Assembly: GCF_003334255.1 (NCBI RefSeq)
Contig: NZ_QOWU01000023.1
Reading direction: 5' to 3' (one strand)
DNA from: Escherichia coli
GTDB lineage: Bacteria > Pseudomonadota > Gammaproteobacteria > Enterobacterales > Enterobacteriaceae
Length of the DNA stretch: 64,000 nucleotides
Both the position numbers and the translations under genes were made by a program. This document shows positions 24,665-41,670 of the stretch, one piece after another (within the stretch, counting starts at the first letter, position 1; each line of letters opens with the position of its first letter). The notes under the pieces were generated by a model, which was not told the origin of the DNA, did no database searches, and saw only the letters and a list, made by a program, of their open reading frames with translations.

Positions 24665-25200
24665 TCACTTTCAAAAGTCCCTGAACTTCCCAACGAATCC
24701 GCAATTAAATATTCTGCCCATGCGGGGAAGGATGAGAAGCTTCGACCAAGGTTCGACTCGAGCGCCAGCGAGAGAGCGTTGCCGCAGGCAACGACCCGAA
24801 GGGCGAAGCGCGCAGCGCTGAGTAATCCTTCCCCCACCACCATCACTTTCAAAAGCCCCGGAATTCTCAAACGAATCCGCAATCAAATATTCTGCCCAAG
24901 CGGGGAAGGATGAGAAGCTTCGACCAAGGTTCGACTTGAGCGCCAGCGAGAGAGCGTTGCCGCAGGCAACGACCCGAAGGGCGAAGCGCGCAGCGCTGAG
25001 TAATCCTTCCCCCACCACCATCACTTTCAAAAGCCCCGGAATTCTCAAACGAATCCGCAATCAAATATTCTGCCCAAGCGGGGAAGGATGAGAAGCTTCG
25101 ACCAAGGTTCGACTTGAGCGCCAGCGAGAGAGCGTTGCCGCAGGCAACGACCCGAAGGGCGAAGCGCGCAGCGCTGAGTAATCCTTCCCCCACCACCATC
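24665..25200 (+). repeat. rttR: Three tandem 178-bp repeats distal to the tRNA-Tyr genes (rtT RNA / tpr region)
   Basis: Units begin tcactttcaaaag at 24665, 24843 and 25021; each ends with the tRNA-Tyr 3' end ccttcccccaccacca. Confidence 0.8.
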
Positions 25201-25239
25201 GCTTCCTTAAATAATCAAAACCTGTTACTCCGAGCTAAT

Positions 25240-25316
25240 TTTGCCCGATGGCACCACGTTTACCGGGCCTACAATATCCTCCCCTGTAGGTCGGATAAGC
25301 GAAGCGCATCCGACAA
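25240..25316. repeat. REP / BIME-like palindromic elements
   Basis: taggtcggataagcgaagcgcatccgaca and tttaccgggcctac resemble the REP consensus. Confidence 0.55.
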
Positions 25317-25336
25317 CTCACCCCGCACCGTGCCCA

Positions 25337-25362
25337 TAAAAAAACCCCGCCGAAGCAGGGTC
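25337..25362 (-). terminator. narI rho-independent terminator
   Basis: On the minus strand cccugc-UUCG-gcgggg hairpin followed by a U7 run, just after the narI stop. Confidence 0.7.
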
Positions 25363-25381
25363 TATGTGAACTAAAATTCGC

Positions 25382-41446: not shown

Positions 41447-41513
41447 AAGAGAAAACCCCCGCACGTTGAGAGGTAAAACCTGACAACAAAACGGGGGCTA
41501 ATCTTGAAACCAG
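41447..41513 (-). ncRNA. rdl: Rdl antisense RNA of the ldr type I toxin-antitoxin unit
   Basis: Minus-strand sequence gtctggtttcaagattagcccccg...cgtgcgggggttttctc ends in a GC hairpin plus U-run; complementary to the ldr 5' leader. Confidence 0.55.
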
Positions 41514-41562
41514 ACACTTCAAGAATAGCCGCAAAATGTTGTCATTACAACAAGGCGGCTAT

Positions 41563-41670
41563 ATGACGCTCGCGCAGTTTGCCATGATTTTCTGGCACGA
41601 CCTGGCAGCACCGATCCTGGCGGGAATTATTACCGCAGCGATTGTCAGCTGGTGGCGTAACCGGAAGTAA
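41563..41670 (+). CDS. ldr: Ldr toxin peptide (35 aa), type I toxin
   Basis: Translates to MTLAQFAMIFWHDLAAPILAGIITAAIVSWWRNRK; absent from the ORF track because it is short. Confidence 0.8.
   Translation: MTLAQFAMIFWHDLAAPILAGIITAAIVSWWRNRK

Follow-up and report, generated by a model that had tools for sequence, protein, structure and literature searches.

The repeated tail of the tyrT operon in Escherichia coli: tandem RtT units whose 3' ends copy the tRNA gene upstream

Introduction

In Escherichia coli, the tyrT operon reportedly carries, beyond its tRNA genes, a 178-bp unit that is present in 3.14 copies and takes in the tRNA's final 19 nt, a description said to go back to Egan and Landy in 1978 and to Rossi et al. 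in 1981 (Cell 26:305). Transcription of the operon was reportedly found by Kupper et al. in 1978 to be terminated by Rho in unit 2, some 225 nt beyond the last CCA, and Rossi et al. are said to have provided biochemical evidence in 1981 for Rho-dependent tyrT termination in the repeats. A protamine-like protein encoded there, Tpr, was reportedly proposed by Altman et al. in 1981 (Cell 26:299, cited in PMC11623569).

The transcript of the repeats has a literature of its own. According to the passages of PMC3318445 and PMC4986893 that cite the work, the rtT RNA was identified by Bosl and Kersten in 1991 as a processed RNA of 171 nt. A polycistronic tyrT-tyrV-tpr transcript accumulates in a mutant upon inactivation of RNase E (PMC3082872), and it has been suggested that overexpression of rtT modifies amino-acid starvation or the stringent response (PMC4986893; bioRxiv 10.1101/2024.07.17.603846). 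Outside E. coli, Rfam matches to RtT lie beside tRNA-Asn and tRNA-Lys genes of Actinobacillus pleuropneumoniae, where they gave northern signals (PMC4986893), and an 'RtT sRNA' has been annotated in Thioalkalivibrio (PMC8092127).

Here we describe the tyrT locus of an E. coli genome, contained in a window of 64 kb, which is the whole stretch of DNA that was analysed. The locus resembles that of strain MG1655 in its position between purU and narI, its period of 178 bp, its 3.14 copies and the 19-nt tRNA-Tyr end of each unit; distal units 1 and 3 each match their MG1655 counterpart exactly, the tpr reading frame encodes PRTL_ECOLI, and the Rfam matches are full-length. It differs in that three tRNA-Tyr genes and two spacer units take the place of the two genes and one spacer unit of MG1655, and in that distal unit 2 repeats the sequence of unit 3; in MG1655, by contrast, all three distal units differ from each other at 8-9 positions.

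Results

Identity and layout of the operon

A preliminary description of this DNA, made from the letters of the sequence, had recognised in it the rtT/tpr architecture of the tyrT operon. This reading is right, as follows from matches to the Rfam family RF00391 (RtT RNA), the RefSeq label of the repeats and an exact match of the small reading frame to PRTL_ECOLI. All five units of the locus matched RF00391 over the full-length model, at 132.9-137.5 bits where the gathering score is 45, and RefSeq labels the identical intervals of Origami2-DE3 and XL1-Blue as 'RtT sRNA, processed from tyrT transcript'. Over 1.5 kb the locus is 100% identical to these two E. coli strains and 99.9% identical to TOP10, and in the 24-kb stretch around it the identity to these K-12-type genomes is about 100%. 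The array is the known repeated tail of the E. coli tyrT operon, already represented by a curated Rfam family and annotated in RefSeq. The 171-nt rtT RNA presumably corresponds to positions 24672-24842 in distal unit 1, since rttR begins 7 nt past tyrV (EcoCyc) and 7 plus 171 nt make up the 178 nt of one unit.

Three tRNA-Tyr(GTA) genes, all identical in sequence, were identified on the + strand with ARAGORN (Table 1). According to the RefSeq annotation of locus-identical genomes, the locus is flanked by purU and, on the narI side, by the convergent narGHJI operon. The promoter listed in Table 1, which we take to be the classical tyrT promoter, is the sole strong sigma-70 match on the + strand upstream of the array; a search for sigma-70 matches found no internal promoter within the tyrT array, and no intrinsic terminator was found on the + strand between purU and narI. 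One good + strand promoter and a + strand free of intrinsic terminators from purU to narI are consistent with a single transcription unit. Its far boundary is marked by the intrinsic terminator of the convergent operon, and no comparable terminator was found on the + strand.

Table 1. Features of the tyrT locus, in coordinates of the window
Feature	Position	Strand	Evidence or remark
tyrT promoter: -35 TTTACA, 16-bp spacer, -10 TATGAT, TG upstream, then GC-rich discriminator	23914..23941	+	10/12 sigma-70 positions
tRNA-Tyr(GTA) gene 1	23992..24076	+	ARAGORN; Rfam tRNA 53.4 bits
Spacer unit 1, diverged 175-nt RtT unit, core 24120-24251, 19-mer 24233-24251	24077..24251	+	RF00391 132.9 bits; alignment
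34-nt leader-like stretch before tRNA gene 2	24252..24285	+	Sequence
tRNA-Tyr(GTA) gene 2	24286..24370	+	ARAGORN; Rfam
Spacer unit 2, exact copy of spacer unit 1, core 24414-24545	24371..24545	+	Rfam 132.9 bits
tRNA-Tyr(GTA) gene 3	24580..24664	+	ARAGORN; Rfam
C-rich, G-poor junction (30 C, 6 G), candidate Rho-loading (rut) and RNase E entry region	24642..24719	+	Composition
Equivalent C-rich, G-poor junctions	24824-24901, 25002-25079, 25180-25257	+	Composition
Distal unit 1, 178 bp, RtT core 24711-24842	24665..24842	+	RF00391 137.5 bits; identical to MG1655 unit 1
tpr ORF, 29 aa, 'protamine-like protein'	24732..24821	+	Exact PRTL_ECOLI match; in distal unit 1
Distal unit 2, 178 bp, RtT core 24889-25020	24843..25020	+	Rfam 134.2 bits; 9 differences from MG1655 unit 2
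Distal unit 3, 178 bp, RtT core 25067-25198	25021..25198	+	Rfam 134.2 bits; identical to MG1655 unit 3
Partial fourth unit, start (the 0.14 of 3.14 copies)	25199..25204	+	Tandem Repeats Finder array end 25204
Intrinsic terminator of convergent narGHJI operon, hairpin then T-run	25342..25363	-	Marks far boundary of the tyrT transcription unit

Anatomy of the repeat units

Tandem Repeats Finder placed an array at 24646-25204, with a period of 178, 3.1 copies, 97% matches, no indels and a score of 1053; its 559 bp equal 3.14 times 178. The three near-identical 178-bp units that had been described behind the last tRNA are thereby confirmed. With unit boundaries set directly after each CCA, distal unit 3 has exactly the sequence of unit 2, and there are 9 positions at which unit 1 departs from these two. 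The same program reported a second array at 23982-24844, whose period of 294 comprises a tRNA gene together with the spacer that follows it.

Between the tRNA genes lie two spacers of 209 bp (24077-24285 and 24371-24579), identical to one another, that had been interpreted as diverged copies of the distal unit. Both indeed contain such a unit of 175 nt, which ends in the same 19-mer as the distal units and is followed by a leader-like stretch of 34 nt; in E. coli strains that lack a spacer unit, these 34 nt are the entire spacer. The 3' 132 nt of the spacer units aligned to the distal units without gaps, with a mean column identity of 92% over the five units, while the 5' part is poorly conserved between spacer and distal units. 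Each unit can be divided into a C-rich, G-poor linker of about 46 nt and an RtT element of 132 nt.

The 3' end of every unit is AATCCTTCCCCCACCACCA, a sequence exactly equal to the final 19 nt of tRNA-Tyr. The preliminary description was correct in assigning to each unit a mimic of the tRNA 3' end that includes CCA; the length of about 16 nt that it gave falls short of the exact copy, which is 19 nt. Eight copies of this 19-mer lie within 1.15 kb, in the three tRNA genes, the two spacers and the three distal units, and no further copies were found on either strand of the 64-kb window, so its recurrence is not due to chance.

Some attenuator candidates that resemble the rtT transcript are BIMEs (PMC2965389). 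A link of this kind was rejected for the present locus: the REP-like sequence of the window (about 25243-25320) lies downstream of the array, outside the units.

A conserved RNA fold

In the covariation-supported consensus fold, the 5' strand GGGGAAGGAU pairs with the unit's own 3' end. This 3' end copies, in its 19 nt, the 3' strand of the tRNA T stem, the 3' strand of the acceptor stem and ACCA, and the 5' strand resembles an antisense of the tRNA T arm. A preprint speaks of an 'sRNA antisense to tRNA-Tyr' (PMC11623569), an RNA that might conceivably reflect this antisense-like 5' strand of RtT.

A scan with the RtT core over one genome per species yielded 99 stretches, nearly all from Enterobacterales, and 202 units were found with a covariance model that had been built from the five units of the window, using the Rfam structure and one extra helix. 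Base pairs were counted in 141 distinct units, drawn from 99 loci in other species, in an alignment fitted to the model structure. Standard pairs occupied 96.2% of the cells, compared with 37-52% in controls with slid partners; the fitting of the alignment biases this percentage, though not the presence of double changes. Eleven pairs showed changes on both sides, compared with 4.0 in shuffles, and none of 500 shuffles reached the observed number. These compensatory changes cluster in a hairpin at unit positions 67-83 and in a helix at positions 97-109, where the spacer-type units of the window have tandem G-A pairs. Covariation support for RtT and a helix with tandem G-A pairs have been described in matching terms (PMC8250186).

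The RtT fold is conserved, with compensatory changes across units of other Enterobacterales. Its closing stem, in which the mimic takes part, is nearly invariant among the 141 units and is for that reason silent on covariation in either direction. When the 171-nt RNA was folded alone, it did no better than shuffled sequences (z = -1.06), so that the case for the structure is made by covariation and not by the folding of a single sequence.

The 3' end of the unit follows the upstream tRNA

Units lay directly downstream of a tRNA-Tyr gene on the same strand in 47 of the 50 loci that were checked. In two of the three exceptions the sequence starts just some 100 bp upstream of the match, and a tRNA gene, if there is one, would therefore fall outside it; the third follows a tRNA-Gln gene. 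Where the acceptor stem of tRNA-Tyr is GGCGGGG/CCCCGCC, the following units end in CCCCCGCCACCA, in all 20 of 20 exact cases. In operons of mixed composition each unit matches the tRNA that precedes it, for example in locus L085, which has the order tRNA(A)-unit(A)-tRNA(G)-unit(G).

The same correspondence extends beyond tRNA-Tyr. In an assembly assigned to the Cellvibrionaceae, a unit scoring 57.4 bits, against the gathering score of 45, follows tRNA-Gln and has the tail AATCCTTCCACCCCAGCCA, which is the last 19 nt of that tRNA-Gln. Weaker RtT-like units were found on metagenome contigs after tRNA-Gln (L136 and L143) and tRNA-Arg (L198); at 28-34 bits they are below the Rfam gathering threshold, and each ends in the last 19 nt of its own tRNA. 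These units came from a metagenome scan for tails other than that of tRNA-Tyr, in which most of the matches listed are due to chance. A covariance-model search of 100 sources, namely 99 of the loci from the metagenome scan and one viral locus (L102), gave only 17 matches, spread over 13 sources, and several of these matches are tRNA-Tyr units of the ordinary kind.

The mimic thus always copies the tRNA immediately upstream, whether this is one of the acceptor variants of tRNA-Tyr, tRNA-Gln or tRNA-Arg. An association of RtT with other tRNAs was already known in part from the report on Actinobacillus (PMC4986893). The RtT-like elements found at other tRNAs in Gammaproteobacteria differ from the units of the window, which are of the classical tRNA-Tyr type, in having other tails and, for most of those found here, in scoring below threshold.

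Exact tails were more frequent among internal units (59 of 63) than among terminal units (42 of 77). This is what homogenisation by unequal exchange predicts, and it would also fit relaxed selection on units that lie beyond the terminator. The tracking of the upstream tRNA by the tail can be explained by recombination alone, without selection for tRNA mimicry.

Unit junctions, processing and termination

The junctions, each formed by a 19-mer and the next 59 nt or so, have a C/G ratio of 3.3-4.4, which places them at the 99.9th percentile or above among the 78-nt windows of the 64 kb, and a GC skew of -0.5 to -0.7. Rho-loading sites are expected to have such a composition, and both it and the absence of an intrinsic terminator on the + strand fit Rho-dependent termination.

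The sequence that follows CCA was compared in 212 distinct trailers from other species, with tRNA-Tyr genes and mimics pooled. The first position is T in 97% of them, and the first six positions are almost free of G. Since each unit offers a tRNA-like 3' end and a G-free trailer with U at +1, tRNA-processing nucleases should separate the units from one another.

Reading frames within the array

Distal unit 1 alone preserves the whole tpr frame, which in units 2 and 3 is cut short by a TGA at codon 10. Among homologous units of other species, the frame is stopped after 5 codons in 104 of 137, and frameshifts occur in others, so the frame is not conserved in the way expected of a coding gene. 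A G-rich stretch, GGGGAAGG, ends 1 nt ahead of the tpr ATG, which is too close for normal Shine-Dalgarno spacing. Because the frame is broken and the substitutions keep base pairs and not codons, we consider tpr to be fortuitous: the ORF most likely arises as a by-product of a structured RNA and is not a conserved gene.

Two long ORFs, one of 299 aa on the minus strand (23983..24882) and one of 165 aa on the plus strand (24416..24913), had been named in the preliminary description as spurious. Both exist as mechanical reading frames, and the view that they are spurious holds: they overlap tRNA genes, and a search against NCBIfam gave no match for either of them, for a third overlapping ORF or for Tpr. 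A collection of about 15 billion proteins lacks one of the two long ORFs; its entries for the other are gene calls that are all either nameless or labelled 'hypothetical protein', vary in length and come mostly from short contigs. The long ORFs are artefacts of the repeats.

Copy number among E. coli strains

The window equals MG1655 plus one exact tRNA-plus-spacer block of 294 bp, and removal of one copy restores colinearity. The block that is extra relative to MG1655, at 24281-24574, is 100% identical to 23987-24280, which indicates that the expansion is recent. After its removal 11 substitutions remain: two are in narI and narH, and the other nine cluster in distal unit 2 (24856-24943). In the unit naming of MG1655, the distal order in the window is unit 1, unit 3, unit 3.

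A comparison of repeat number with other strains, as the preliminary description had proposed, yields variation from one to three distal units, in steps of whole units. E. coli strains have two or three tRNA genes, a spacer of 34 or 209 nt and one to three distal units, and the differences between them always comprise whole units bounded by the 19-mer. Some strains have two tRNA genes 34 nt apart and one or two distal units; MG1655 has two tRNA genes, a spacer unit and three distal units; and O157:H7 F1273 has three tRNA genes, two spacer units and two distal units. The three-gene form colinear with the window was found in 5 of the 60 best-ranked records of a search over 5,426 genomes, namely Origami2-DE3, XL1-Blue, TOP10, ETEC H10407 and its twin record SEC470.

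The short spacer of 34 nt is what would remain if the 175-nt spacer unit were lost by exchange between two 19-mers, and a classical supF strain has lost one tRNA gene together with the intervening RtT (PMC12584984). The variation by whole units, the 34-nt remainder and the loss in the supF strain point to unequal homologous exchange and gene conversion among the repeats.

Discussion

We consider it highly probable that the array as a whole is the set of distal repeats of the tyrT (tRNA-Tyr1) operon, co-transcribed with the tRNA genes, processed, terminated by Rho and subject to recombination, with tpr as a by-product. Transcription from the tyrT promoter would give one transcript that runs through the three tRNA-Tyr genes and the two spacer units into the three 178-bp units. 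From the literature and from the trailer sequences, we infer that RNase E would cleave directly 3' of each CCA and that exonucleases would trim back to it. Cleavage of this kind would free structured RNAs that match the published 171-nt rtT RNA of distal unit 1, and the CCA-ending tail beside a stable stem may shield the product from more trimming. Termination would be Rho-dependent and take place within the array, with the C-rich unit junctions as putative loading sites. Unequal recombination or gene conversion between the repeats shifts the numbers of tRNA genes and units and also keeps each tail identical to the tRNA upstream.

Three other explanations of the array were weighed against this one. 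The units could be scars of site-specific integration at a tRNA 3' end, that is, integrase-free mini-elements that formed the array by repeated insertion. Integrative elements at tRNA genes are flanked by direct repeats of the last 15-25 nt of the gene, and here exact direct repeats of 19 nt from the tRNA 3' end enclose each unit, with the length and position typical of an att core; moreover, the tail equals the 3' end of the upstream tRNA for variants of tRNA-Tyr, for tRNA-Gln and for tRNA-Arg. Unlike such elements, however, an RtT unit has no recombinase, is only 178 bp long and has a conserved structured RNA body. Integrase and mobile-element genes are absent at the locus, whose neighbours are purU and narI, and 2.9 million viral contigs gave a single match, a 335-bp stretch with two units, and no evidence of a phage link was found. 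Across Enterobacterales the unit body keeps the same chromosomal position and has been conserved with compensatory base changes, which argues for vertical descent and selection at the RNA level, and homologous unequal exchange fully explains the differences in copy number among strains. An origin by integration is in our judgement extremely unlikely. The idea that the array is chiefly protein-coding, with the arginine-rich Tpr of 29 aa as its product and the repeats as duplicated or decayed copies of its gene, strikes us as equally unlikely. The ORF at 24732-24821 is intact, matches PRTL_ECOLI exactly and is named in many E. coli records, but the TGA at codon 10 of distal units 2 and 3, the early stops and frameshifts in homologous units, the gap of 1 nt between the G-rich stretch and the ATG, the absence of an NCBIfam model and nucleotide changes that keep base pairs and not codons speak against it.

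The units might also be neutral by-products of slippage and unequal crossing-over next to a highly transcribed tRNA gene, with neither the RNA nor the mimic under selection. Copy number does vary freely, from one to three distal units with or without a spacer unit, terminal units are more decayed than internal ones, and the folding energy of a single sequence is unremarkable. Neutrality is nevertheless very unlikely in view of the retention of units after tRNA-Tyr in about 100 species of Enterobacterales, with 96% of the pairs kept and 11 pairs doubly changed, of a homologue above threshold after tRNA-Gln in the Cellvibrionaceae assembly, and of northern signals for RtT homologues in Actinobacillus (PMC4986893).

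Beyond the classical locus, RtT may be a general trailer module independent of the identity of the tRNA, with a conserved body and a 3' end that is rewritten to match, whose released acceptor-like RNA serves as a decoy or sensor. We put this forward tentatively and think it rather unlikely; alternatively, the units would be no more than a terminator or a spacer for processing, homogenised by recombination. If the module does exist, its RNA, with an end like that of an uncharged tRNA, would be a decoy or sensor for 3' exonucleases, for the CCA-adding enzyme or for the stringent-response machinery.

For annotation, the consequence is that the locus should be labelled with three tRNA-Tyr genes, five RtT RNAs and tpr as a doubtful small ORF, and that the long ORFs should be dropped. 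The small additions made here are the three-gene variant with its converted unit 2 and the rule, seen across species, that the mimic follows the upstream tRNA. The tyrT locus is a clean case of repeat-mediated copy-number change in a tRNA operon, which includes the gain of an extra tRNA-Tyr gene, and the rule, if confirmed by a systematic census, would give a handle on selected mimicry as opposed to homogenisation by recombination.

RtT-like elements in other genomes

Among the loci from other genomes and metagenome contigs that were matched by scans for RtT-type units, L042, L136, L143, and L198 carry RtT-like units that follow tRNA-Gln(TTG) or tRNA-Arg(ACG), and each of these units ends in the 3'-terminal 19 nt of the tRNA that precedes it. 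The sources are one Cellvibrionaceae assembly and metagenome contigs, and in the L198 repeat the trailer and an intrinsic terminator are duplicated as well. Within this set, only the L042 unit, with 57.4 bits, exceeded the Rfam gathering score for RtT.

A search with a covariance model built from the five window units identified partial RtT cores in Trabulsiella, Kosakonia, and Citrobacter as strong separate matches (66-76 bits), which span model positions 30-114 and have neither the closing stem nor the tRNA-like tail. At both Trabulsiella loci, the partial core is located in the leader or promoter region, with about 40 nt separating it from the first tRNA-Tyr gene downstream. With the same model, units were also detected in two records labelled as non-enterobacterial genomes: in that of Chryseobacterium sp. 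18061 (L061), two tRNA-Tyr genes are followed by two RtT units (126-133 bits), and in that of Martelella alba (L080), a weaker unit (39.9 bits) lies behind a single tRNA-Tyr gene. It is possible that these assemblies are contaminated or mislabelled, L061 being the likelier case.

Coordinates of the features described
Feature	Location	Remarks
RtT-like units after non-Tyr tRNA	L042 2804-3054; L136 7482-7824; L143 7239-7446; L198 37-300 (minus strand)	
Partial RtT cores	L047 1959-2046; L079 1092-1179; L098 1664-1752; L007 397-484; L006 1041-1128	
RtT unit 5' strand, GGGGAAGGRTGAGAANCTTCGA	window 24133-24154, 24427-24448, 24724-24745, 24902-24923, 25080-25101	all five window units
REP-like palindromes, GCCCGATGGCACCACGTTTACCGGGCCTACA and TGTAGGTCGGATAAGCGAAGCGCATCCGACA	window 25243-25320	by eye
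rdlD	window 41450-41515	one Rfam match
Ldr-type peptide ORF, 35 aa	within window 41536-41670	one ORF
narI/narH difference	window 25450	window C; MG1655 and Origami2-DE3 T
narI/narH difference	window 27202	window A; MG1655 and Origami2-DE3 G

Sequence features in and around the tyrT operon

The 5' strand of the RtT units looks like an antisense T arm, showing 86% complementarity across 22 nt to the segment of tRNA-Tyr that comprises the T arm and the 3' part of the acceptor (TCGAAGGTTCGAATCCTTCCCC), and it could in principle pair with the upstream tRNA inside the precursor. An 'antisense tRNA-Tyr' sRNA has been reported (PMC11623569), and this strand could be a source of misassigned reads in such studies when they are strand-blind.

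Between the array end and the narI terminator, two REP-like palindromic sequences were recognized, which together look like a BIME. The 'rtT transcript' has been linked with BIMEs (PMC2965389), and this downstream pair may be the reason for that link.

In narI and narH, the window differs by two single bases from MG1655 as well as from Origami2-DE3, and it therefore represents a further K-12-type strain, identical to none of its best database matches. Between chaA and kdsA, the window contains a single ldr/rdl toxin-antitoxin unit (41450-41670), and no tandem repeat was found over this interval. MG1655 presumably carries three tandem LDR copies at the same position; if so, this would be a second repeat locus at which the copy number in this strain differs from that in MG1655.
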